Source: Promethearchaeota archaeon
GTDB taxonomy: Archaea > Asgardarchaeota > Lokiarchaeia > Sigyniarchaeales > SOKP01
Direction of reading: 5' to 3'
Assembly (NCBI GenBank): GCA_016926735.1
Contig: JAFGOA010000187.1
Coordinates: 22,920-86,919, forward strand
DNA length: 64,000 nucleotides
A program made the position numbers and the translations under genes. The notes below the pieces were generated by a model. The model did not search any database. It saw only the letters and a program-made list of their open reading frames with translations, and was not told the DNA's origin. This document shows, in pieces, positions 6,484 through 32,479 of the stretch (position 1 is its first letter; each line of letters opens with the position of its first letter).

Positions 6484-7455
6484 TTAAACTTTTTTATTTT
6501 TATTTCTTAAATAATGGGCAATATCTTCTTTTATAGGAATTCCCTTTCTGGCTCCTAATTCTTGAATACATTTTCCAGCAATATAATTTCCTAATCTAAC
6601 ATTATTTACAAGATTATCAAATTCGAAGCTTAAATTTTGAAAAAAGCCATAAATAAAACCAGCAGAAAAAGCATCTCCTGCACCAGTTGTATCTTTAACA
6701 TTTTCGATTATGTTCGATTCTACTAAAGAGGATTTATTTTTTGACACTAATAAAGCACCCTTCTTACCTAAAGTGATAATAATAGTTTTAAGACCAAGTT
6801 CCCAGAATTTTTCATTTTTTTCAATCAAATAATTTGTATTGTTAGGGATATTTTTAATATGTATTAATTTACAATATTCTTTTTCTGATAAAATTAAAAT
6901 ATCAATTTTTTCAAGTAAGAGTTCGATATTATCGAATCCTTGATCTATTATCAACATACCGGGGTTTAAAATTACAGGAATCTTATTTTTCTTTCCTATT
7001 TTCCCTGCTTTAATAAAAGGTTTTAAATTTTTAAGACTACTTAAAAAAAGAACCTTTGATTTAATTAACTCATTTTCAATAATATCTTCTTCTGATAAAT
7101 AATTAGCAGCACCACTATAAGCATAAATTCTTCTGTCTGCATTCTTATCTAGAGCAATATATGTTGAACCTGTTTGATAATCATTTGAATATTTAATTAA
7201 GTCTGTATTTACACTATTATTTTTAAAATCACTGAGAATCTTATTTCTATATTCATCATCAAATCCTAGTTTTCCAATAAAAGAGGTATTTAAACCTAAT
7301 TTACTACATGCTACAGCAGTATTTGCAGCAGCTCCTCCAAATAACATTAGTAATTTGGAAACAAATACTTCATCATCTTCTAAAGGATGTCTATCTACTT
7401 GTGCTACTATATCAATTAATGCGGCACCAATACATATAACATCAAAATTATTCAT
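6484..7455 (-). CDS. PfkB/ribokinase-family carbohydrate kinase
   Basis: GGAAAN.A and DTTGAGDAF signatures. Confidence 0.92.
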   Translation of the reverse strand: MNNFDVICIGAALIDIVAQVDRHPLEDDEVFVSKLLMLFGGAAANTAVACSKLGLNTSFIGKLGFDDEYRNKILSDFKNNSVNTDLIKYSNDYQTGSTYIALDKNADRRIYAYSGAANYLSEEDIIENELIKSKVLFLSSLKNLKPFIKAGKIGKKNKIPVILNPGMLIIDQGFDNIELLLEKIDILILSEKEYCKLIHIKNIPNNTNYLIEKNEKFWELGLKTIIITLGKKGALLVSKNKSSLVESNIIENVKDTTGAGDAFSAGFIYGFFQNLSFEFDNLVNNVRLGNYIAGKCIQELGARKGIPIKEDIAHYLRNKNKKV

Positions 7456-7468
7456 ATTCTAAAAACCA

Positions 7469-8653
7469 TTAAATATATGTGAATTTTCCAAATTCTGACT
7501 GAATTTCTAAAGTATTTTTATTTTTCAATGGAGATTTCTCACAAAAACCAATAATTTTAGCTTCAATATCAAATTTACTTGCAATATTTATTATATCTTT
7601 AGAAATTGATCGATCGCAATATAATTCCATTCGATTTCCCATATTAAAAACCCTATACATTTCCTCCCAAACAGCTTTAGAAGATTCTTGAATAATTTTA
7701 AAGATTTTTGGAATTGGAAACAAATCATTTTTTATAAATTTTATATTTTTTCCAAAATTCAAGCATTTTGTCTGACCTCCTCCTGTATTATGTATGATGG
7801 CATTTATTTTTGATCTATATTTTTTTAGGATTTTTAGTAAAACAGGAGCATAAGTTCTTGTGGGAGATAGTAACGCTTTTCCTATGGTTGTATTTTTTTC
7901 ATCAATAATATCTGATAATTTATAATTTCCATAGAAAACAAAACTTTCCTGCAACTTGTTATCATAACATTCTGGATATTTATCGAAATATTGATGAGAG
8001 AGTACACCATGTCTTGCTAAAGTAAGACCATTGCTCCCAATTCCACTATTATATTCTTTTTCATAACTGGCTTTTCCAGTACTAGATAACCCGATAATAA
8101 CATCTTTTTCAGATATATTATCAGCATTTATAACCTCATCTCTTCTCATTGTAGTGAATACAGAGGCGAATACTGAAAGTGTTTTTATTATATCTCCCAT
8201 ATCTTCTGTTTCACCTCCACTGGTTTTGATATTTAATCCGTATTTTGTTAGAAACTCACAATAAGATTCATATTCATCAATAATTTCATTTATTATAAAT
8301 CCATCTATATAATAAGCATTTCTTGCGATTGTATTTGAAAGAAAAATATTTTCTGTGCAACCCACACACATTATATCATCAATATTCATTACAATTGCAT
8401 CTCTAACTATACCTCTAAAGAGAGATAAATCTCCGGATTCTTTATAATACATATAGGCTAAGGTGGCTTTAGTACCTGCACCATCTTCATGAAATATTGA
8501 GCAATAGTCTTTTCTTCCTGCAACATCTTCAACAATTTTGCAAAATGCACCTGGAAAGAGACCTCTATCTCTATTCTCAATTGCTTTATGTACATCTTCT
8601 TTTGTTGAAGAAACACCTAATTTTGAATATATATCATTTTTATTTTCTCTCAT
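7469..8653 (-). CDS. purM: Phosphoribosylformylglycinamidine cyclo-ligase (AIR synthase)
   Basis: DGAGTK, MNIDD, GGET, SNGLTLARH, HNTGGG and VFNMG motifs; adjacent to purB. Confidence 0.9.
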   Translation of the reverse strand: MRENKNDIYSKLGVSSTKEDVHKAIENRDRGLFPGAFCKIVEDVAGRKDYCSIFHEDGAGTKATLAYMYYKESGDLSLFRGIVRDAIVMNIDDIMCVGCTENIFLSNTIARNAYYIDGFIINEIIDEYESYCEFLTKYGLNIKTSGGETEDMGDIIKTLSVFASVFTTMRRDEVINADNISEKDVIIGLSSTGKASYEKEYNSGIGSNGLTLARHGVLSHQYFDKYPECYDNKLQESFVFYGNYKLSDIIDEKNTTIGKALLSPTRTYAPVLLKILKKYRSKINAIIHNTGGGQTKCLNFGKNIKFIKNDLFPIPKIFKIIQESSKAVWEEMYRVFNMGNRMELYCDRSISKDIINIASKFDIEAKIIGFCEKSPLKNKNTLEIQSEFGKFTYI

Positions 8654-8662
8654 AGTAAGACA

Positions 8663-10024
8663 TTATTTTAGGTTATATTTTGATTTAAAATAAGTTACTA
8701 GGTTTTCTATTTGTTCAACTGCTTTACCTATATAATTATATGGATTAAATAACTCATTGATTTCTTCCTTTGTAAATTTGTGATTAATCTCATCGTTTTT
8801 TATGATTATATCTTTCATATAAAGGTTATCATCTCGAGCTTTAATTGCTGTTTGTCGTAATAATTCATGAGCTTCTTGTCGACCAATTCCTTTTTCAACT
8901 AGCTTAACCATAACTTTTTCCGCTAAACAAGCTCCTTTTGTTAAATTAAGATTTTTTTCAATATTTTCTTTATTAAACTCTAATCCTGTTAGATTTTGAA
9001 TAAGTTGCTGAATCATGAAATCTAAAAAAACAAAATTTTCAGAAAAAATAACCCTCTCCGAAGCAGAGTTGGTTAAATCTCTCTCATCTTCAAGAACAAT
9101 ATTATCCATTGCCACTATCACATTTGATTTGAGAATTCTTGATAAACTACAGATTCTTTCTGATTTATGAGGATTTCTTTTATGTGGCATAGTTGAGCTT
9201 CCTACTTGGTTCTTTTTAAAAGGTTCAAACATCTCAGCGATTTCATTTCGTTGTAGTATCCTATTTTCTTGAGCTATTTTAGCTAATGTTTGTCCTATAA
9301 GAGATGTGAGAAAGATAACTTCAGCATGACGATCTCTCTGAACAATTTGATTAGCTATAAGAACAGGATTAAGATCTAAATCTTTCATGACTTCATTTTG
9401 GATAATAATACCTTGATCTCCAAAACTTGCCATTGTACCGACTGCTCCAGACATTTTTCCATAAGATATTCTTTCTTTTATTTGATGCAGTCTCTCTATA
9501 TGACGATCAACTTCATATGCCCATACTCCAAATCGCATACCGAATGTTGTAGGAACTGCTTGTTGTCCATGAGTACGACCAATACAAACTAATTCTTTAT
9601 TTTTTTCCGATAAAACAACTAATTCTTTTAATAGATTTATTAGTGATTTTTCTATAAGCATTAAACCTTCTTTTAACTGTAAAGCTATAGCAGTATCCTC
9701 AATATCATAACTAGTTGCCCCTAAATGGATATATTTTCCAGCATCTCCTTCACATTGTTCTGCTAATCCTTTCACCATTGCCATTAAATCATGATGAATC
9801 TCTCTATCTATTTCATTTACTCTGTCAATTGATACGAATTTTAAATTAGCTTTTTTATTAATTTCTTCAGCAGCTTCTTTTGGGATATTACCTAATTTAG
9901 CGTGAATTTTAGCTAAGACTGCTTCTATTTTTAACCAATTCTCCAATTTTTTTTCTTCGGTAAAAATTTTAGACATTAAAGTGCGATATCTAGTTTCAAT
10001 TGGATGTATAAATTTATGACTCAT
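8663..10024 (-). CDS. purB: Adenylosuccinate lyase
   Basis: GSSTMPHKRNP signature, HLGATS.D, GRTHGQ. Confidence 0.96.
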   Translation of the reverse strand: MSHKFIHPIETRYRTLMSKIFTEEKKLENWLKIEAVLAKIHAKLGNIPKEAAEEINKKANLKFVSIDRVNEIDREIHHDLMAMVKGLAEQCEGDAGKYIHLGATSYDIEDTAIALQLKEGLMLIEKSLINLLKELVVLSEKNKELVCIGRTHGQQAVPTTFGMRFGVWAYEVDRHIERLHQIKERISYGKMSGAVGTMASFGDQGIIIQNEVMKDLDLNPVLIANQIVQRDRHAEVIFLTSLIGQTLAKIAQENRILQRNEIAEMFEPFKKNQVGSSTMPHKRNPHKSERICSLSRILKSNVIVAMDNIVLEDERDLTNSASERVIFSENFVFLDFMIQQLIQNLTGLEFNKENIEKNLNLTKGACLAEKVMVKLVEKGIGRQEAHELLRQTAIKARDDNLYMKDIIIKNDEINHKFTKEEINELFNPYNYIGKAVEQIENLVTYFKSKYNLK

Positions 10025-10241
10025 TTGTTTTCATTCTCTAATAATTAATCCAGAAAATATGAAAATTAAGAAATAAATAAATGATACCTATGCTCTTAAT
10101 CTCTAAGAAATTATAATGAATTGTTTTAAAATATATTTAATTATTATTATATAAACATTTTAAAAAATCAAATTATTTTTAAAAATTAGAAATCTATTGA
10201 CCTATACTTTTTTTTGAATAATAGTTAGTATTATTTATAGT

Positions 10242-10460
10242 ATGACTATTATCTTTTTTTATCGATGCATTCATTGTGGGGAATGGTATTATTGTACCAA
10301 ACAAATAAAAAGAAAAAAATGTTGGAAATGTAATCATTCTTTTGATTTTGCTCATTCATCTAAATTTAAAAAAAAGTGTTCCTTAAATGAGGCAATTATG
10401 ATCATTAAAGAACTTAAGAAGAGAAAGAAAAATGAGGGAATAATACACTTTTTAGAATAA
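10242..10460 (+). CDS. Small zinc-ribbon protein (DUF1922-like)
   Basis: C.HCG...KKC.KC, 72 aa. Confidence 0.65.
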   Translation: MTIIFFYRCIHCGEWYYCTKQIKRKKCWKCNHSFDFAHSSKFKKKCSLNEAIMIIKELKKRKKNEGIIHFLE

Positions 10461-10588
10461 TTTTGATAATGTAAGAAAGCTAATTTTATTTTATAAAAAA
10501 CAAAGTTATTTAAACTAAGGTTCTAAAAAATCTTTAAAGAGTAGATTAATTCCTCTTCATTTTTAAAAACATTATCTGAATATATAAT

Positions 10589-12034
10589 ATGAAAATTAAT
10601 GAAGATCTCAAAATATTTGATGATAAACTGATAAATAAATTCAATAATTTATCTAATCATAATATAGATTATTGGGATATTAGAGCAGGGTATAGTACAG
10701 GAAATTCAATCGAATTTACTGATAATAAAAGTAAAGAGATCTCTTCTTATGAGGTTATAAAATGTGGAATAAGAACTTTTACACAAGGCGGATGGGGTTT
10801 TGTAGTTGTTGAAGATCTTTCCAGAGAATCTCTGATAAATAATTTTAAAAAAGCAATCAAATTAGCTCAATTATCTGGATCCTTGAATAAATTCAAATTT
10901 AATATTAAAGAATCTGATATATTGATAAAAAATTTTGAAATTAAAAATAAAATTCCATTAGAAAACATTGATATAACTGAGAAAATTAATTTAGTAAGAG
11001 ATCATGAAAAAATTGCAAAAGAATTTAGTCCAAATATAAAAAATACTCTAACATTATATTTTGATGGAATTGGGAATGATATTTTTTTAAATTCATTTGG
11101 TTCTAATATTATTCAAAAATTATCACTTCTGAGAATATTTAGTTCTGTTTATGCTAAAAAAAATGGCATAATTCAAAGAGGAGTAAACTCTGTTGGGGGT
11201 ATTGGGGGATTTGAAATAGCAAAAACTAAAAAAGCAAAGGAAATAAGTTTACTTTCTGCAAAAGAAGCAGTTGATTTATTAGATGCCCAGTCTCCAATAG
11301 GAGGGACTTTTCCTATAATAATGGACCCTAAACTTACAGGAACATTTATTCATGAAGCATTTGGACATGCATGTGAAGCCGATCTTGTACTAAACAAAGA
11401 AAGTATATTAGAAGGAAAAATTGGGGAAAAATTAGCTCATGAAAATGTGACTATTATGGATGATCCAAGATTTGGGAGGGGAGAAGCTTTAGATTTACCT
11501 TATGAACTTTATGGAAGTTATTTTATTGACGATGAAGGAATACCTGCACAAAAAACCATCATTATTGAAAATGGCATCTTCAAAAATTATCTTCATAATA
11601 GAGAAACTGCTTCTAGAATGAATTTTAAACCAAATGGTCATGGAAGAGCATCTTCAAATATTAATAATCCACAGGTGAGAATGGGAATTACTATCCTTGA
11701 ACCTAATGATTGGACCTTAGAAGAAATGATTGAAGATACAAAAGATGGAATTTTATGTGAAGATTTTCAATATGGATATACAGATCCAACAACAGGAAAT
11801 TTTCAATTTAAAGCAAGATTATCATATAGGATTGAGAATGGGGAAAAAAAAGAATTAATGAGAGATGTATCTCTTTCTGGGATGACATTAGATGTATTAA
11901 ATAATATTGATGCAATCGGAAATGAAATAGATTTCTCTGATGGAATGTGTGGAAAAGGAGGTCAAAGCGTTAGGGTTTGTGATGGAGGACCTCATATTCG
12001 TGTTAAAAAAATTACAGTTGGAGGATTAAGGTAA
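10589..12034 (+). CDS. tldD: TldD metalloprotease
   Basis: HEAFGHACEAD, DDEG and CGKGGQ motifs. Confidence 0.93.
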   Translation: MKINEDLKIFDDKLINKFNNLSNHNIDYWDIRAGYSTGNSIEFTDNKSKEISSYEVIKCGIRTFTQGGWGFVVVEDLSRESLINNFKKAIKLAQLSGSLNKFKFNIKESDILIKNFEIKNKIPLENIDITEKINLVRDHEKIAKEFSPNIKNTLTLYFDGIGNDIFLNSFGSNIIQKLSLLRIFSSVYAKKNGIIQRGVNSVGGIGGFEIAKTKKAKEISLLSAKEAVDLLDAQSPIGGTFPIIMDPKLTGTFIHEAFGHACEADLVLNKESILEGKIGEKLAHENVTIMDDPRFGRGEALDLPYELYGSYFIDDEGIPAQKTIIIENGIFKNYLHNRETASRMNFKPNGHGRASSNINNPQVRMGITILEPNDWTLEEMIEDTKDGILCEDFQYGYTDPTTGNFQFKARLSYRIENGEKKELMRDVSLSGMTLDVLNNIDAIGNEIDFSDGMCGKGGQSVRVCDGGPHIRVKKITVGGLR

Positions 12035-12037
12035 AAA

Positions 12038-13411
12038 ATGTTGCAGGATCATGATATTTATAGTATATCTAATAAAATTCTCAATTCTCTTAATCAAAAT
12101 AATGAAATTAAATGTTCTGAAGTTTTTTTTGATAAAACAAGCTATATAAATATTGAAATTGAAGAAAATTCAATTAAATATAGTAAATTAGCTTCAGAAA
12201 GGGGGCTTTCCATTAGAATAATAGATAAAAGAGGGTCTTTAGGATTTTCATTTACTAATAAACTTGAAAATAAACCTATTGAATCAATTGTTAAAACGGC
12301 CATTTCTATGATGAATTGTGGTACTCCAGATCCGGATTTTAAGAATTTACCCCTTCTTTGCAATTCATATCCTGAAGTAAAGGGAATATATGATGAAAAA
12401 ATTAAAGATTTAGATATAGAAGATTCTTCAAAATATATAGATAATTTGATACGAATTTGTGATGAAGATGAAAAAGCAATTTCACAATCAGCAAAATTTA
12501 AATCAAGTTATAATGAAACTTATATTTTTAATTCAAATGGTATTGAACTTTATGGAAAAGATACAATTTGTTCGATTTCTTCAAATATGATAGTTAAAGA
12601 TAAGATTTCTAAACAGACCTCATTTGGATTTGATTGGCAATCTGTAAGGAATATTAGGGACTTGGATTCTGAAAGAATAGCATCAAATGCATTAGAAAAA
12701 GCAAAACAACATTTAAATAGAAAAAATATTAAAAATATGAAAGCTCCAATTATTCTTACTCCAACTGGTACGATTAACTTAATTATTAGTCCAATAATTT
12801 CTGCTATAAATGCTGAGAATTTTCAATATAAACGAAGTTTTCTTATAGGGAAAAGAGGGGAGAAAATCGGAACAGATATTTTAAATATTGAAGATAATGC
12901 TCTTATAAATGGTGCAACCGGGTCTTCTTGTTTTGATGATGAAGGTGTTCCATGCAAAAACAAAAAAATAATTGAAAAAGGCATATTTCTTAAACAGGGA
13001 TTACTTCATAATAGTTATACAGCTGCTAAAGAAGGAATTGATCCTACAGGAAATTCCATACGTACTTCATATAGCTCTCTACCTTCAATTGATTGTACTA
13101 ATTTTATATTAAAATCAGGAAATGAGAACAAAGAGGATATCATAAGTGATATTAATCTGGGCATTCTTTTTGAATATTCAGGAGACTCTGCAAATTTATC
13201 AACAGGAGATTTTTCTGGATTGATCTTACAAGGAAATCTTATAGAAAATGGAGAAATTAAACATTCCTTAAATAATACAATGTTTGGAATTAATCTCTTG
13301 GATTTATTTCAAAATATATCTCAAATTTCAAAAGAATATCAAATATATGGTCCTTATAGTGCTCCTTATGTATGTGTTGATAATGTTCAAATAATAGGAA
13401 ATAAGAATTAA
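12038..13411 (+). CDS. pmbA: PmbA/TldE protein
   Basis: FDDEG and TGDFS motifs without HExxxH; directly follows tldD. Confidence 0.88.
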   Translation: MLQDHDIYSISNKILNSLNQNNEIKCSEVFFDKTSYINIEIEENSIKYSKLASERGLSIRIIDKRGSLGFSFTNKLENKPIESIVKTAISMMNCGTPDPDFKNLPLLCNSYPEVKGIYDEKIKDLDIEDSSKYIDNLIRICDEDEKAISQSAKFKSSYNETYIFNSNGIELYGKDTICSISSNMIVKDKISKQTSFGFDWQSVRNIRDLDSERIASNALEKAKQHLNRKNIKNMKAPIILTPTGTINLIISPIISAINAENFQYKRSFLIGKRGEKIGTDILNIEDNALINGATGSSCFDDEGVPCKNKKIIEKGIFLKQGLLHNSYTAAKEGIDPTGNSIRTSYSSLPSIDCTNFILKSGNENKEDIISDINLGILFEYSGDSANLSTGDFSGLILQGNLIENGEIKHSLNNTMFGINLLDLFQNISQISKEYQIYGPYSAPYVCVDNVQIIGNKN

Positions 13412-13914
13412 GATGTGATATTTAGATGAAGTGTTAGAACATCGTAAAAATTTTCAATACCAAATTGAGGGACTATATATAATTCTAATATTATTATCCT
13501 TAAACCAATTGAATAAAAGGTAATTTTTAATTGCTCTGATATCCAAAATTGTTTATGATTAAGAGTATAGTTTCCAATTGTACTGTTTAATAATGCATCA
13601 TAACTTCCAGTCTCATTTATAATTGTGTTATTATCCCCTTTTAGAATTTTTACATTAAAAGTAAGATCTTTTCCTAAATGATTATCAACAGCAGCATAAA
13701 AAGAAATATTTTCTCCTATTGTAGCATTTGTTGGGTAATTTTGCATTTTCTGTTCTTCATTTAATACACTAAAAGTTATAAATCCCGGTTCTGGATTTAT
13801 AATTAGGAATATAAGAAAAGATGAAATTACAATAATTCCTGCTAAAAGAGAGATTGTGACTATTTTATTGAATTGTTTATATCTTTTTTTTAAATTATGT
13901 TTAGATTCATTCAT
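13408..13914 (-). CDS. Single-TM archaeal protein (DUF1616-like)
   Basis: N-terminal TM helix, F..L.....NYPTN...GE, V.NH.G, L.L.I tail. Confidence 0.6.
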   Translation of the reverse strand: MNESKHNLKKRYKQFNKIVTISLLAGIIVISSFLIFLIINPEPGFITFSVLNEEQKMQNYPTNATIGENISFYAAVDNHLGKDLTFNVKILKGDNNTIINETGSYDALLNSTIGNYTLNHKQFWISEQLKITFYSIGLRIIILELYIVPQFGIENFYDVLTLHLNITS

Positions 13915-18857: not shown

Positions 18858-19160
18858 GTGTCAAGTTTCTTAGAATCTCGAGAATTAAGAAAGAAATATA
18901 AAGAAGTAAGAGAATATGTAAAGATTGGTCCTATCTTCTTAACACGTTATGAAAAAGCCAGAATTGTTGGTGCAAGAGCACTTCAAATTAGTTTTGGTGC
19001 ACCAATTCTTGTTGAAAAACCAAATGATATGATTGATCCAATAAGAATCGCTCAATTAGAACTTAAGTCAGGAATTCTTCCTCTAACAATCAGAAGAGAA
19101 ATGCCAAGTGAAGAATTTCAAGATGTTCCAATTAATAAATTAATACTAAAAAAGGATTAA
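18858..19160 (+). CDS. rpoK: DNA-directed RNA polymerase subunit K (Rpo6)
   Basis: LTRYEKARIVGARALQI and PLTIRR motifs. Confidence 0.96.
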   Translation: MSSFLESRELRKKYKEVREYVKIGPIFLTRYEKARIVGARALQISFGAPILVEKPNDMIDPIRIAQLELKSGILPLTIRREMPSEEFQDVPINKLILKKD

Positions 19161-19338
19161 TTGGATTTTTTCCTTAATTTAATATTTTAATATATTCATC
19201 ATTAATTCTTATGAAATTCTCAATATTTTTTTATTTTAAAAATCACATGGAAATTTATGTAATTATCAGAACTTTAAAAAATTACAGAGACCAATAATAA
19301 AAATAAAGATATAAAATTACTTTGTTTCTCATATCTTT

Positions 19339-24648: not shown

Positions 24649-26589
24649 TTGCCTACTATGGATAGACGATTCATTGATGAGGAAGGTAAAGTATTAATGT
24701 TAGGAAATGAAGCAATTATAAGGGGATGTTTAGAAGTAGGTGTAAGCTTTGTTTCCCAATATCCTGGAACACCAACAAGTGATATAGGTGAGACCTTTCA
24801 GAAATTACTGAGAGAACAACCGGAATTACAAAATTATTTAGTACATCATTGGGGTATCAATGAAGCTGTAGCCTCCTCTGAATGTGCGGGAGCCGCCTGG
24901 ACAGGTTGTAAATCATTAAATCCAATGAAACATGTAGGATTAAATGTTGCAAGTGATCCTTTAAGTGTTATTGCTCTTAATGGACCCAACCCTGGGGCAA
25001 TGGTAATATTAGTTGGTTCTGATCCTGGGAGTTTGGGATCTCATCAAGAACAAAATGAACGATTTTATACTTGGATGTTTCATTTTCCTTGCTTTGAGCC
25101 TCATACACCTCAAGATTGTAAAGATTATATCAAACTAGCTTTCAAATTATCTGAACAATATGATACTGTTTTTGAAATAAGAACTTCAACAAGAAGTGCC
25201 CACTCTAGAGGTTTTGTTAATTTAGAGCCTATAATAAAAGGAAAGAAAAAAGGAGAATTTATAAGAAATATTCCAAAATATAATTCTCTCCCTCCTCATG
25301 CAATTAATAATCACATAAGACTTTACGAAAGAATTGAAAAGCTAAGAGAAATTATACCAAAATTAGGAGTAAATAAAGTAATAGAAGGAAATAATAAAAT
25401 AGGGATTATAACTAGTGGAATGCCTTATGGATATACTTTGGAAGCATTAGATCAATTAGGATTAAATGATGTACCTATATTAAAATTAGGACTAATCTAT
25501 CCATTAAATTATAATGAAATTTCAGATTTTCTTAAAGATTTAGATAAAGTTATAATAATAGAAGAATTAGAACCCTTTTTAGAAGTAAAAATATCAGAAA
25601 TTGCACATAAAAAGGCAATTAATGTTGAAATAATCGGTGAAAAATATTTTCCTAAATCAAATGAATTTTCTACGGGATTAGTTGCATCATGTTTAGCAAA
25701 AATATTTAAAAAAGAACCAAGTAATCAAATGATAAAAGCTATTGATTATTTTAATTCATATAAAAACATAATTCCAAGTAGGTTTCCCTCTTTTTGTGCT
25801 GGATGTCCAGAAAGAGCAACGCTCTATACAATTCTTAAAGCAACTAATCAGTTAGAAAATACAGTAGTATGTGGTGATATTGGATGTTTTGTAATGAGTT
25901 TTTTTCCTCCTCAACAATGCAGTGATTTAGTAATTTGTATGTCAGGTGGACTAAGTGCGGCAATCGGTATGTCTACAAAAACAGATCAAAAAGTTATTGC
26001 CTATATGGGAGACTCAACTTTTTTACACACTGGAATGAGTCCATTAGCTGAAGCGGCAAGTTATGATTCAAATATACTATTATTTATCTTTGAAAATAGT
26101 TGGACAGCTATGACTGGCCATCAACCAGTACTAGGATTGATTGAAAAAAGAATATCTATTGAAAAAATCTGTAAAGCAATTGGAGTACAATGGCTCAGAG
26201 TTGAAGATTCTTATAACCCAAAAAAATTAATCTCAAGTATAGAGAAAGCATTTGAGACTAAGGGGCTTAAAGTAATTATAGTAAAAAGAGAATGTGCTCT
26301 ACAGGCTCATAGATGGAGAATGAAACAAAGAAGAGAATTAAATAATCAAGGCAAAAGAACACAAGAGGTTATGTATCATATTACGGGGTGTCAGATGTGT
26401 TATGAATGCGCTCGTATATTGAGTTGTCCTGCAATAAGAAAAATTGAAAAAGATGGATATGAAACCATGCAAATTGACGATGATAGATGTGTAAAATGTG
26501 GTGTCTGTTATGAAGTTTGTCCTAATGGAGCCATTCATAAATCTATTATTAATGCTTTAGATGAAGAAGTTCCCTTTCGAGAACTCTGA
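24649..26589 (+). CDS. iorA: Indolepyruvate:ferredoxin oxidoreductase alpha subunit
   Basis: GNEAI.RG, YPGTP, MKHVGLNVASD, CAGCP, GDIGC, GDSTF.H, TAMTG.Q; C-terminal ferredoxin. Confidence 0.95.
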   Translation: MPTMDRRFIDEEGKVLMLGNEAIIRGCLEVGVSFVSQYPGTPTSDIGETFQKLLREQPELQNYLVHHWGINEAVASSECAGAAWTGCKSLNPMKHVGLNVASDPLSVIALNGPNPGAMVILVGSDPGSLGSHQEQNERFYTWMFHFPCFEPHTPQDCKDYIKLAFKLSEQYDTVFEIRTSTRSAHSRGFVNLEPIIKGKKKGEFIRNIPKYNSLPPHAINNHIRLYERIEKLREIIPKLGVNKVIEGNNKIGIITSGMPYGYTLEALDQLGLNDVPILKLGLIYPLNYNEISDFLKDLDKVIIIEELEPFLEVKISEIAHKKAINVEIIGEKYFPKSNEFSTGLVASCLAKIFKKEPSNQMIKAIDYFNSYKNIIPSRFPSFCAGCPERATLYTILKATNQLENTVVCGDIGCFVMSFFPPQQCSDLVICMSGGLSAAIGMSTKTDQKVIAYMGDSTFLHTGMSPLAEAASYDSNILLFIFENSWTAMTGHQPVLGLIEKRISIEKICKAIGVQWLRVEDSYNPKKLISSIEKAFETKGLKVIIVKRECALQAHRWRMKQRRELNNQGKRTQEVMYHITGCQMCYECARILSCPAIRKIEKDGYETMQIDDDRCVKCGVCYEVCPNGAIHKSIINALDEEVPFREL

Positions 26590-28081: not shown

Positions 28082-29032
28082 ATGGAACTATTAAAATTAA
28101 AATCAAATGAAAAGACTATTAATATGATTAAAAAAGATAAAACAGCTAATATATGCTATTTTTTTGATACTGATGAATATGCTTCTCCTTTTGATATCAA
28201 TATGGCTTATGATTCAGGTTATGATATTGTCATTCCTTTCAATCATATGAGTAGTAAAAAAGTTCCTAAGCTGGTTCAAGATGCTATTTTTTCCAGACGG
28301 AAATATAATTCTTCAATTTTCTTTATCGGGGGAAGTGATACGCAGGAAGCAGATTTAATCGCTAAAAATATTTTTAATTCTCTGGTACCACCATTTGAAT
28401 ATCCTATTGTCTTAGATCCCCGAGGATCTCATTCTACAGCCTCGGCCATAGCTGCTAAAACTCTTAGTATTTTAGGAAATATTAATAACAAAAAGATTGT
28501 AATTTTAGGAACGGGTCCAGTTGCTAGAATGGCTGCTTTATTAGGTGCTAAACTTAATGCTAAAATTAATATCGTGGAAACATGGAATAAAGTGGATTTA
28601 AAACAATTTAATGAAATTATAAAAAATCTAAAAAAGGAGTGTAAACAAGAAGAGAATAACCGAATTAATGGAAATTGTGCTTTTTCTGAAGAAGATCGTT
28701 TGGTAATAATAAAAGATGCAGATATTATTTGGTCACTGGCGGCACCTGGAATACAGATCCTTTCAGAGGAAATTATGAGTAATTTAAACAACAGTCAATT
28801 AGTAATTGATGCAAATTTAGTACCTCCCTATGGAATTTATGGATTAAAACCTAAAGATGATAATAAAGAAATATATCCTGGAATTTTTGGAGTTGGAGCA
28901 TTAGTAATTGGAAAATTAAAATATAAGATTGAGTCTTTGATATTAAAAAAAGCAATGAATTCTGCAACAAAAACACTTTATGATTATAATTATGGATTTG
29001 AAATAGCATTGAAATTATTAAATTTAAATTAA
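28082..29032 (+). CDS. Mtd-family methylene-H4MPT/H4F dehydrogenase, copy 2
   Basis: Same motifs as copy 1; GTGPVA. Confidence 0.85.
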   Translation: MELLKLKSNEKTINMIKKDKTANICYFFDTDEYASPFDINMAYDSGYDIVIPFNHMSSKKVPKLVQDAIFSRRKYNSSIFFIGGSDTQEADLIAKNIFNSLVPPFEYPIVLDPRGSHSTASAIAAKTLSILGNINNKKIVILGTGPVARMAALLGAKLNAKINIVETWNKVDLKQFNEIIKNLKKECKQEENNRINGNCAFSEEDRLVIIKDADIIWSLAAPGIQILSEEIMSNLNNSQLVIDANLVPPYGIYGLKPKDDNKEIYPGIFGVGALVIGKLKYKIESLILKKAMNSATKTLYDYNYGFEIALKLLNLN

Positions 29033-29322: not shown

Positions 29323-30276
29323 ATGGAATTATTGGAAATAAAACCTGATAAAAGATTAATTAAAGTTATAGAAAAAGAAAAACAAACTGATATTATATGC
29401 TATTTTTTTGATACAGATGAATATGCCTCTCCATTTGACATAAATATGGCTTATGATGCTGGAATAGATAATGTTTTACCTTATAGTAATGTGAAAGCTA
29501 ATTATGTTCCAAAATTAATAAATCAACTTATTTTTTCTAGAAAAATATGTTCTAGAACAATCTTTTTTGTTGGAGGAAGCAAAACAAATGAAGCTGATTT
29601 GATTGCTAAAAATATTTATCATTCATTAGTAGCTCCTTTCAATTTTCCTATCATAATTGATCCTAGAGGGTCTCATACAACTGCCTCAGCGATTATAGCA
29701 ACAATGATTAAAGCTATAAAAAATTTAAAGAATAAAAATATTGTAATATTAGGAACCGGTCCTACAGCAAGAATATTAGCAATATTAGCAGCCAGATTAA
29801 AAGCAAAAATAGTTATGTTCGAAACATTGAAAAACGTTAATCAAAATTATATAAACGATCTCAATTTTGAATTAAGTGAAAAATTAGCTCAAGATTTTAA
29901 AAATCTAACTATTTATTGCAATTCTAACGATATTATTGACCGATTTGACCTAATCAAAAATGCAGATATAATTTGTTCTCTTGTGGCACCTGGAGTAGAG
30001 ATTTTACCTGTTCATATAATTAAAAAATTAAAGAGCCCAAAATTAATTATTGATGGAAATATGGTACCTCCTTATGGTGTGTGGGGATTAAATCCAAATG
30101 ATAATAATAAAGAAATTTATCCAGGGATTTTTGGTATTGGCGCATTAATCATAGGTAATTTAAAGTATAAAATAGAATCTCTTATTTTGAAAGAAGCCAT
30201 GAAATCTAGTATAAAAAGAATTTTTAATTATAATTACGCATTTAATATCGCTTTAAAATTACTTAATTTAAAATAA
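29323..30276 (+). CDS. Mtd-family methylene-H4MPT/H4F dehydrogenase, copy 3
   Basis: Same motifs; QDAIFSR changed to NQLIFSR, GTGPTA. Confidence 0.82.
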   Translation: MELLEIKPDKRLIKVIEKEKQTDIICYFFDTDEYASPFDINMAYDAGIDNVLPYSNVKANYVPKLINQLIFSRKICSRTIFFVGGSKTNEADLIAKNIYHSLVAPFNFPIIIDPRGSHTTASAIIATMIKAIKNLKNKNIVILGTGPTARILAILAARLKAKIVMFETLKNVNQNYINDLNFELSEKLAQDFKNLTIYCNSNDIIDRFDLIKNADIICSLVAPGVEILPVHIIKKLKSPKLIIDGNMVPPYGVWGLNPNDNNKEIYPGIFGIGALIIGNLKYKIESLILKEAMKSSIKRIFNYNYAFNIALKLLNLK

Positions 30277-30393: not shown

Positions 30394-31182
30394 TTATATA
30401 AATAATTTTATAATTAAAAAGATTCCAATTCCTATACCATAAATAGGAATAACATATTTCCAGAATTTATTTGGTATAACTCTTACAAGATATGGAGATA
30501 TTAAGGCAGCAAAAAACCCTCCTGTGAAAAGTGAAGGTAAAAGAATGAGATCAACAATTATTCCAAAATTTTGAATCAAATAGAAACAAAAAATACCAAC
30601 TATTGAAACAATACTTTCTGAAAAAGAAACAATAGCTGTAGCGCTTTTTTCATAAATACCTGAATGAATTTGTCCTAATGTAATTATTGGACCATAACCT
30701 CCTCCTCCAATTCCTTTATTAAAACCTGCTATTGCTGAAAAACCGATTAATAATTTACGATTTAATTTATTTTGTTGATCTTTTTTAATTATTAATTTTA
30801 GAATTGCAACTCCTCCCATAATAACTACTAAAATAGCTACATATGCTTTAATAAAAATGGTTGGCAAATGAAATGCAAGATATGTAATTATAATTGAAGC
30901 AAATATTGCAATACATCCACAAAATGCAAAAATTAATCCGAATTTTGTAGCCTCATTTAATGGTTTGAATGAATAACGAACATTTCCTAATTCATGATCA
31001 AAAAATGTATCAATTATTCCTGTTATTGTTTCAGAAATAAGTATTGTTGGTACTACTTGAAGAGGAGAAAATCCATATAATAACAATAATGGGGATAATG
31101 CAGTTCCAAAACCCATACCTGCCATTGAGTCCATAGATTCAAAAATAAAAGCTAAAATTATAATATCCCAAAATAAATCCAT
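30394..31182 (-). CDS. TauE/SafE (TSUP) family membrane transporter
   Basis: D...GMGFGT..SP.L and GIGGGGYGP repeats; multi-TM. Confidence 0.85.
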   Translation of the reverse strand: MDLFWDIIILAFIFESMDSMAGMGFGTALSPLLLLYGFSPLQVVPTILISETITGIIDTFFDHELGNVRYSFKPLNEATKFGLIFAFCGCIAIFASIIITYLAFHLPTIFIKAYVAILVVIMGGVAILKLIIKKDQQNKLNRKLLIGFSAIAGFNKGIGGGGYGPIITLGQIHSGIYEKSATAIVSFSESIVSIVGIFCFYLIQNFGIIVDLILLPSLFTGGFFAALISPYLVRVIPNKFWKYVIPIYGIGIGIFLIIKLFI

Positions 31183-31774: not shown

Positions 31775-32479
31775 ATGAGCTTTAAAGAAACTGATATTAT
31801 TAATATTGTTGTAGCAGGAACTGCCGGACAGGGAGTTATTTCAGTTAAACGATTAATTGAATTTGCAGCTCAAAAAGCAGGCGCAGAGCGAATTCTTGGA
31901 AGTGAAATCTTTATTTAGTTAGAATAAAGACATTTAATGCATGGACTCGCTCAGAGAGAAGGTGCTATAACAAGTCATACACGATATCAAAAGAAATTGT
32001 TCAATAATCCTCGTAAAGATTTGCAATCTTCATTAATCTGCTATGGAGATGCGGATATTTATATTTGTCTCGAACCAGTTGAAGCTTTGAGAAGAGGTAT
32101 TTTTGCTTCGGAAAAGACAACTTTTGTAATAAATTCAAGAACAATTCCTGGTGTAATGATAACTGCTGGTCTGGAAAAATACCCATCATTAGATAAAATT
32201 AAAGAAACTTTGATAGGTAATGCTAAAGATGTTTATTTTATAAATGCTACTGAAATATCTTTAGAATATTTCAAACAAAATCAGCAAGTAAATATAATAA
32301 TGTTAGGTTTTGCTATATCAACTAATAAATTACCTTTTATCGAAATAGATCATTATGAAGATGTAATTAAAGAATGGCTAAAAGATCCTGAAATAAATAT
32401 TAAAGCATTGCATTTAGGTATCGAAAAAGGTAAAGAAATAATCGAAAAAATGAATTTAAATCCAGACAAGATAGAATAA
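31775..32479 (+). CDS. iorB: Indolepyruvate:ferredoxin oxidoreductase beta subunit, split by a 30-nt intron (exons 31775-31906 and 31937-32479; 224 aa)
   Basis: Exon 1 MSFKETDIINIVVAGTAGQGVI...ILGSE; exon 2 MHGLAQREGAITSH...LEPVEALR...N..MLG; the joined GSEMHGLAQREG is the IorB motif. Confidence 0.9.
31907..31936 (+). other. Bulge-helix-bulge mRNA intron in iorB
   Basis: AGTG-[AA^A]-TCTTTATT-loop-AATAAAGA-CATT-[TA^A]; contains in-frame TAG and TAA. Confidence 0.85.

Follow-up and report, generated by a model that had tools for sequence, protein, structure and literature searches.

The interrupted iorB gene

The window analysed here, a stretch of 64,000 nucleotides (contig C4:22920-86919), belongs to an assembly of 3.88 Mb (26% G+C, 238 contigs, 99.3% complete) whose relatives are Promethearchaeota/Promethearchaeia, names that in the Asgard kingdom denote the phylum and class around Lokiarchaeota, in agreement with the initial annotation, which had attributed the DNA to an Asgard archaeon. 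The window carries an iorB-type gene, encoding a subunit of a 2-oxoacid oxidoreductase (IorB), whose reading frame is broken by a short insert, and an iorA-like partner gene farther upstream. The features are as follows:

24688-26535, plus strand: iorA-like partner gene with TPP_enzyme_C, POR_N and 4Fe-4S domains (Pfam), intact
31775-31906, plus strand: iorB exon 1, 44 codons from the ATG at 31775, encoding MSFKETDIINIVVAGTAGQGV...AGTAGQGV...AERILGSE
31907-31936, plus strand: predicted bulge-helix-bulge (BHB) mini-intron, 30 nt, with in-frame TAG (31916-31918) and TAA (31925-31927)
31937-32479, plus strand: iorB exon 2, 180 codons plus stop, from the ATG at 31937 (MHGLAQREG...) to the TAA at 32477-32479

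Translation of the window places the two exons in the same frame, as halves of a single IorB-family gene, with the product of exon 1 starting MSFKETD. We thus recover at identical positions what the initial annotation had described, namely an N-terminus missing from the 180-residue open reading frame but encoded upstream in the same frame, and a 30-nt separator with two in-frame stops. Exon 2 matches the Pfam family PF01558 (POR) above the cut-off (E = 8.9e-14, profile positions 29-173). In alignments to the NCBIfam IorB models, residues 6-40 of exon 1 cover profile positions 1-35, and the alignment of exon 2 begins at profile position 36-42, indicating that the two pieces abut without a gap in the profile. 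When the exons are scored separately, exon 2 alone reaches 89.9 bits against NF005323, for which the cut-off is 238. The break lies directly after the conserved GxGGQG segment, and a genome search returned this one copy as the only iorB-like gene, with no backup.

The iorA-like gene scores 536.7 bits against TIGR03336 over profile positions 2-595, which does not reach the cut-off of 650.9 bits, and it lies approximately 5.2 kb upstream of iorB. At the loci from other genera that were examined, the end of iorA lies approximately 30 to 270 nt upstream of iorB on the same strand, whether an intron is present or not (L007, L011, L013, L017, L043, L044, L051, L061, L063, L066, and L067; the upstream open reading frame was checked with Pfam in L017 and judged by equal size and place in the others). 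Two further loci from the present genus were examined, and they are likewise without an adjacent upstream iorA reading frame. Between iorA and iorB in the window, we observe two tandem paralogs on the plus strand (28082-29032 and 29323-30276, 316 and 317 residues), the first of which was scanned and contains an N-terminal domain of the methylene-tetrahydromethanopterin dehydrogenase type (Mpt_N), as well as a TauE-family gene on the minus strand (30394-31182).

Predicted bulge-helix-bulge fold and splice junction

The insert and the exon sequence on both sides of it can be folded into a BHB structure composed of the following elements:

31886-31900, plus strand: 5' strand of the exon-exon helix (h), exon 1 codons 38-42, with 12 of 15 positions paired to 31938-31952
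31901-31904, plus strand: 5' strand of the central helix, AGUG, in exon 1, facing CAUU at 31931-31934
31905-31907, plus strand: 5' bulge, AAA, with the predicted cut at 31906/31907
31908-31930, plus strand: intron hairpin (h'), with a stem of 8-9 bp and a loop of 5-7 nt
31931-31934, plus strand: 3' strand of the central helix, CAUU, on the intron side
31935-31937, plus strand: 3' bulge, UAA, with the predicted cut at 31936/31937, the last A being the A of the ATG
31938-31952, plus strand: 3' strand of the exon-exon helix, exon 2 codons 1-6

This arrangement has the hBHBh' geometry, with two opposed 3-nt bulges, a 4-bp helix between them, and flanking helices. All four pairs of the central helix AGUG/CAUU form, one of them as G-U; the intron stem UCUUUAUU/AAUAAAGA consists of eight perfect pairs and a closing U-G; and the exon-exon helix contains a perfect GAGCGA/UCGCUC. 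The BHB fold has an energy of −19.7 kcal/mol, which is 0.3 kcal/mol above the minimum free energy (MFE) of −20.0 kcal/mol, and the region has a folding z-score of −3.15. With the boundaries kept fixed, a 4/4 central helix together with at least eight stacked stem pairs arises in 80 of 1,000,000 shuffled inserts. The BHB fold proposed in the initial annotation (a 4-bp helix, 3-nt bulges AAA and TAA, and an 8-bp stem) is therefore reproduced in exact register, and the imperfect exon-exon helix that it described is also present, although its extent had been drawn too short and really amounts to 12 of 15 pairs over 31886-31900/31938-31952. Neither Rfam nor ARAGORN gave a match within the window. 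A self-splicing group I or group II intron was considered and rejected, given an insert of only 30 nt and no Rfam match in the window.

With respect to the cleavage sites, the stated rule for BHB motifs is a cut between the second and third bulge bases (PMC2738675). In the same genome, a cut after the second bulge base gives the correct anticodon loop in tRNA-Leu(CAG). Applied to the iorB insert, the rule joins GAA to AUG (...GSE/MHGLAQREG...), with no residue gained or lost. The predicted joined sequence, GSE-MHGLAQREG, corresponds to that of the uninterrupted orthologs (n = 29) and of many full-length database proteins, so the junctions of intron-less orthologs bear out the cut after the second bulge base that the initial annotation had put forward. 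In relatives with the bulges CUA, UCA, ACA, or UGA, it is only the second-base cut that restores the frame. The tryptic peptide ILGSEMHGLAQR is encoded across the predicted junction and would exist only after splicing.

Occurrence, covariation, and selection among relatives

Orthologs were collected in 41 related genomes and also by scanning GTDB with each species represented by a single genome; together they yielded 48 distinct junctions, all from Promethearchaeota MAGs. An insert at exactly this site is found in 19 of the 48, and the other 29 are uninterrupted. Nine of the 19 inserts measure 30 nt and ten measure 31 nt, with 18 distinct sequences; since a 31-nt insert shifts the frame, read-through is impossible in that form. 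All intron-bearing genes fall within one GTDB family (f1), where they are spread over at least seven genera, and three of these genera (g3, g5, and g6) include both intron-bearing and intron-less species. The trait changes nine times on a weakly resolved protein tree. Furthermore, a distant ortholog group is uninterrupted in the three other families searched (f2 to f4), and paralogs with 30-33% identity are continuous through the homologous site at four of four loci, which were chosen on account of internal stops in three of their matches. The iorB intron appears to be old within one Promethearchaeota family, with several precise losses or exchanges. The insert of L061 (1471-1500) has the same geometry and no obvious sequence likeness to the others; it may be an independent gain or replacement. 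As a weak test for homing endonucleases, a LAGLIDADG-motif regular expression was run on the flanks of the 48 loci and gave no match, and no second copy of the insert, as expected of a mobile repeat, was found in the genome.

An ortholog with 97% identity, from a different MAG, carries exactly the same insert, which is also seen in an independent salt-marsh run (metagenome contigs) and in a protein cluster from a JGI metagenome. An assembly artefact is rejected on the grounds that the insert recurs in the independent salt-marsh sample and in other MAGs.

Covariation was assessed in an alignment (A3) of 18 intron-bearing sequences. Standard pairs occupy 92.1% of cells, compared with 83.6% after shuffling (0 of 500 shuffles reach the observed value), and 20-46% of cells pair in controls with slid partners. 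Double changes are seen at 11 pairs (49 cells), and all three helices covary. In the central helix, the third position is U-A in 12 sequences and C-G in 6, with no mispairs; this pair couples a synonymous Ser third base in exon 1 (AGU/AGC) to the second base of CAxU/CGxU in the intron, and it switches five times on the best tree. A pair between exon 1 and exon 2 is U-A in 11 sequences and C-G in 5, linking the second base of a Val/Ile versus Ala codon to GGA/GGG, and in L009, where exon 1 has changed from CGA to UUA, exon 2 shows the corresponding change from CUC to CUA. Across the 18 sequences, 93% of exon-exon helix cells pair, with double changes at two pairs, and the intron hairpin has changes on both sides at eight of nine aligned pairs. 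Owing to the poor resolution of the gene tree, the number of independent compensatory events can be estimated only roughly.

The exon-exon helix forms 10-13 of 15 pairs in genes with the insert, versus a mean of 8.7 in genes without it, a contrast that is inflated by relatedness. A paired-lineage test relating the intron to exon-exon helix strength is underpowered, with one pair on well-supported branches. The full BHB is the unconstrained MFE structure in 11 of the 18 sequences, and the central helix is weakened in 4 of the 18, with 3/4 pairs in L003 and L051 and 2/4 in L044 and L056. In L044 and L056 (1471-1500), CAAA faces AGUG. The ortholog alignment that the initial annotation had proposed for intron presence, absence, and covariation has thus given a patchy distribution (19/48) and covarying helices.

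Both exons are under strong purifying selection. In intron-bearing genes, exons 1 and 2 have median dN/dS values of 0.07 and 0.087, respectively, which are indistinguishable from those of the intron-less genes (0.074 and 0.088). There are no internal stops or frameshifts in either exon of any of the 19 intron-bearing genes, and exon 1 is conserved in all orthologs. These observations bear on the idea of a dead or dying gene, in which the insert would be inactivating and the two halves of the reading frame would be relics. The two in-frame stops, or the frameshift in the 31-nt forms, and the separation of iorB from iorA in the present genus would fit such a fate. A pseudogene is nevertheless excluded because the selection analysis contradicts decay (dN/dS of 0.07-0.09, as in intact genes), and the insert has been kept across at least seven genera with compensatory changes, in what is here the sole iorB-type gene, near an intact iorA-like gene; we regard inactivation as highly improbable. 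Decayed exons, which the initial annotation had named as an observation that would speak against splicing, were looked for and not found in either exon.

The purifying selection on exon 1, which indicates that it is translated, could also be reconciled with a split gene, in which a 47-residue N-terminal peptide and a 180-residue protein starting from the ATG at 31937 would assemble without splicing, leaving the hairpin as an intercistronic element. Exon 2 does begin exactly on an ATG, and public annotations call just the open reading frame of 171-191 residues. However, this Met is a conserved internal residue in all intron-less orthologs and hence not a feature of a split. A split would moreover fall directly after the GxGGQG segment, and it leaves unexplained the register-exact 3-nt bulges, the exon-intron coupling in the 4-bp helix, and an exon-exon helix that is stronger only where the insert is present. 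By eye, the 3' halves of the 18 inserts share no conserved Shine-Dalgarno-like motif. Two separately translated pieces are, on this evidence, very unlikely.

The public record is in keeping with the length classes just mentioned. Public relatives of 31937-32476 form two groups, of 171-191 residues ("headless") and of 202-227 residues. About one third of close relatives are headless, with a start either within the insert or on the internal Met, and where such proteins have been named, the annotation is that of a complete 2-oxoacid:acceptor oxidoreductase family protein. In the public protein collection, full-length proteins are at most 84% identical to the present exon 2, and the clusters of ten headless proteins contained no full-length member, so that a spliced form of the present protein was looked for and not found there.

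A stop-containing gap with a hairpin soon after the take-off point is also what would be seen if ribosomes hopped over the 30 or 31 nt of an uncut RNA, as in the translational bypass of phage T4 gene 60. The take-off codon would be GAA, but the codon before exon 2 varies (UUA, UAA, UCU, AAC, UUC, UUG, and others) and matches it in 0 of 18 sequences. Bypassing also gives no reason for a helix between the 3' end of the intron and exon 1, or for the exon-exon helix, and the host has the enzyme that cuts BHB motifs, as well as numerous tRNA genes with BHB introns. We consider hopping hardly credible here.

Taken together, positions 31907-31936 are highly likely to be an archaeal BHB intron in the coding sequence of the genome's sole iorB-type gene. 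The central claim of the initial annotation, that iorB contains such an intron and needs its removal to yield the protein, is supported by site occupancy, the 31-nt forms, covariation, selection, the junction, and the EndA genes. Judging from structure and evolution, excision of the 30 nt and rejoining of the flanks are very probably required before iorB mRNA can yield the protein. Two metatranscriptome runs from the source study gave no sequence placed on this stretch. Within the precursor RNA, codons 38-44 of exon 1 would pair with codons 1-6 of exon 2, the intron would form a hairpin, and two 3-nt bulges would flank the 4-bp helix. A tRNA-splicing endonuclease made of EndA-family subunits would then cut after the second base of each bulge, and an RtcB-type ligase would join GAA to AUG, giving the spliced junction GGAAGUGAA/AUGCAUGGA. 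The spliced mRNA would encode an IorB of 224 residues (...ILGSE-MHGLAQREG...), whereas unspliced RNA would give a 47-residue peptide only.

Predicted splicing machinery, further candidates, and known systems

With respect to the enzymes, we observe two EndA-family genes in the genome (contig C33, region 8963-9190, and contig C100, region 19024-19269), each with both tRNA_int_endo domains (PF02778 and PF01974). Asgard EndA has been described as an (alpha-beta)2 enzyme with a broad-specificity L1 loop (PMC5829648), and two EndA-family subunits, as predicted from these genes, would fit that architecture. Many tRNA genes of the genome are interrupted (ARAGORN). RtcB (PF01139) was not found in the 99.3%-complete, 238-contig assembly. 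Searches of 13 relatives found it in 11, among them all three from the same genus, and its lack here is probably an assembly gap, with the gene unassembled. On contig C157, approximately 29 tRNA genes lie within about 6.5 kb (~7086-13605), all but one of them intronless; this cluster may represent an array of tRNA genes from a virus or mobile element, or else the contig may have been mis-binned.

Two other protein genes of the genome contain comparable breaks. A thioredoxin gene on contig C17 (minus strand) has a 32-nt insert after WCGPCK, with exon 1 ending at reverse-strand position 1200; the central helix is 4/4, the intron stem has 5 bp, and the outer helix is 6/6. Removal of the 32 nt gives WCGPCK-FIAPILHKL, as in two intact paralogs, and this case fits the suggestion of the initial annotation that more such cryptic introns may hide in genes annotated as split. 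In the gene for aIF2-gamma on contig C18 (minus strand, reverse-strand positions ~411-500), the P-loop GHVDHG is followed by a 29-nt break, and removal of these 29 nt gives GHVDHGKTTLVKALTG. This insert has an exon-exon helix and an intron hairpin, with a central helix that falls outside the strict 3-4-3 geometry.

A genome-wide BHB scan, combining structure with joinable open reading frames, had likewise been suggested in the initial annotation. The scan does recover iorB, but the canonical geometry is not enriched over controls, with 200 hits versus 158-201 for mis-registered controls with a 4-bp helix. Under stricter rules, there are 36 hits versus 32-51 in those controls and 17 in a control with a 5-bp helix. 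Because the scan is non-discriminating in a genome of 26% G+C, no intron count is drawn from it. There is an even chance, in our estimation, that the iorB intron is one of a sizeable population of BHB mini-introns of approximately 30 nt in ordinary protein genes of Loki-type Asgard archaea, which would be gained, lost, and possibly moved between lineages, and for which mRNA splicing by EndA and RtcB would be routine and obligatory.

In the case of HAC1 and XBP1, a short mRNA intron is removed without the spliceosome: an endonuclease makes the cuts, and a ligase of the tRNA type, which in animals is RtcB, seals the ends. There, IRE1 cuts stem-loops, the process is stress regulated, and the C-terminus of the protein changes. 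The initial annotation had drawn a parallel to this system, and a real intron whose conditional removal sets IorB levels would be such a switch. Unspliced RNA is expected to be non-productive, and since translating ribosomes would unfold the exon parts of the BHB, a kinetic competition between translation and splicing is plausible. Against it, species within genera g3, g5, and g6 have or lack the intron under equal protein constraint, the intron conserves only the elements that a BHB requires, and a similar mini-intron sits in the unrelated thioredoxin gene of the same genome. Mini-introns in unrelated genes point to a general property of the genome, not to a device of the IorB pathway. The regulatory parallel is therefore not borne out, and a switch is unlikely. 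The two cases further differ in that IRE1 acts on stem-loops and EndA is proposed to act on a BHB, with no sign of regulation for iorB. Its presence or absence within single genera suggests that the intron is dispensable, and it resembles an element that is tolerated or selfish more than a control device that the gene requires.

The closest known counterpart of the iorB intron is in the pre-mRNA for the pseudouridine synthase Cbf5 of Desulfurococcales and Sulfolobales (Watanabe 2002; Yoshinari 2006; Yokobori 2009, PMC2738675), where splicing has been confirmed by cDNA and most motifs are described as unconventional (PMC2738675). Both are short BHB introns in coding sequence, with cuts predicted between the second and third bulge bases and a hetero-oligomeric endonuclease in the host (for iorB, as predicted from the two EndA-family genes), and both have a patchy presence among relatives, which has been interpreted for cbf5 as gain and loss (PMC2738675). 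They differ in that cbf5 encodes an RNA-modification enzyme of Crenarchaeota, whereas iorB encodes a metabolic oxidoreductase subunit in the Asgard phylum Promethearchaeota. Furthermore, the unconventional cbf5 motifs are confirmed by cDNA, while the iorB motif is mostly canonical and its splicing is inferred from sequence.

Within the same genome, tRNA-Leu(CAG) on contig C95 has the same hBHBh' geometry and cut register as iorB and is presumably processed by the same enzymes. Unlike in a pre-tRNA, the outer helix in iorB is formed by two coding segments instead of a tRNA stem, and the product would be an mRNA, whose frame needs single-base accuracy. A 5'-UTR intron of Haloferax volcanii HVO_1309 provides a further example of an mRNA with a BHB as substrate of the tRNA-splicing endonuclease, which cuts it in vivo and in vitro (Schwarz 2020, PMC7714728). 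That intron lies in an untranslated leader in a euryarchaeal host with a homodimeric enzyme, whereas the iorB intron lies in coding sequence. In the searchable literature, an archaeal BHB intron in coding sequence is confirmed only for crenarchaeal cbf5 (PMC2738675, PMC7714728), introns in other archaeal protein genes are described only as "predicted," and a preprint from 2026 deals with tRNA introns in Asgard archaea but leaves mRNAs aside.

For the predicted intron of iorB, a canonical BHB type, both the gene and the phylum are new. The comparative evidence for iorB, a metabolic Asgard gene that would be unreadable without splicing, is unusually clean. Prokaryotic protein genes are generally taken as uninterrupted. 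If RNA confirms the splicing of iorB, it would follow that gene callers systematically truncate such genes and that metabolic reconstructions from Asgard MAGs may overlook genes or treat them as defective. It would also mean that the pathway of EndA and RtcB, from which the eukaryotic splicing of tRNAs and of XBP1/HAC1 descends, already serves mRNAs in the archaeal lineage nearest to eukaryotes.
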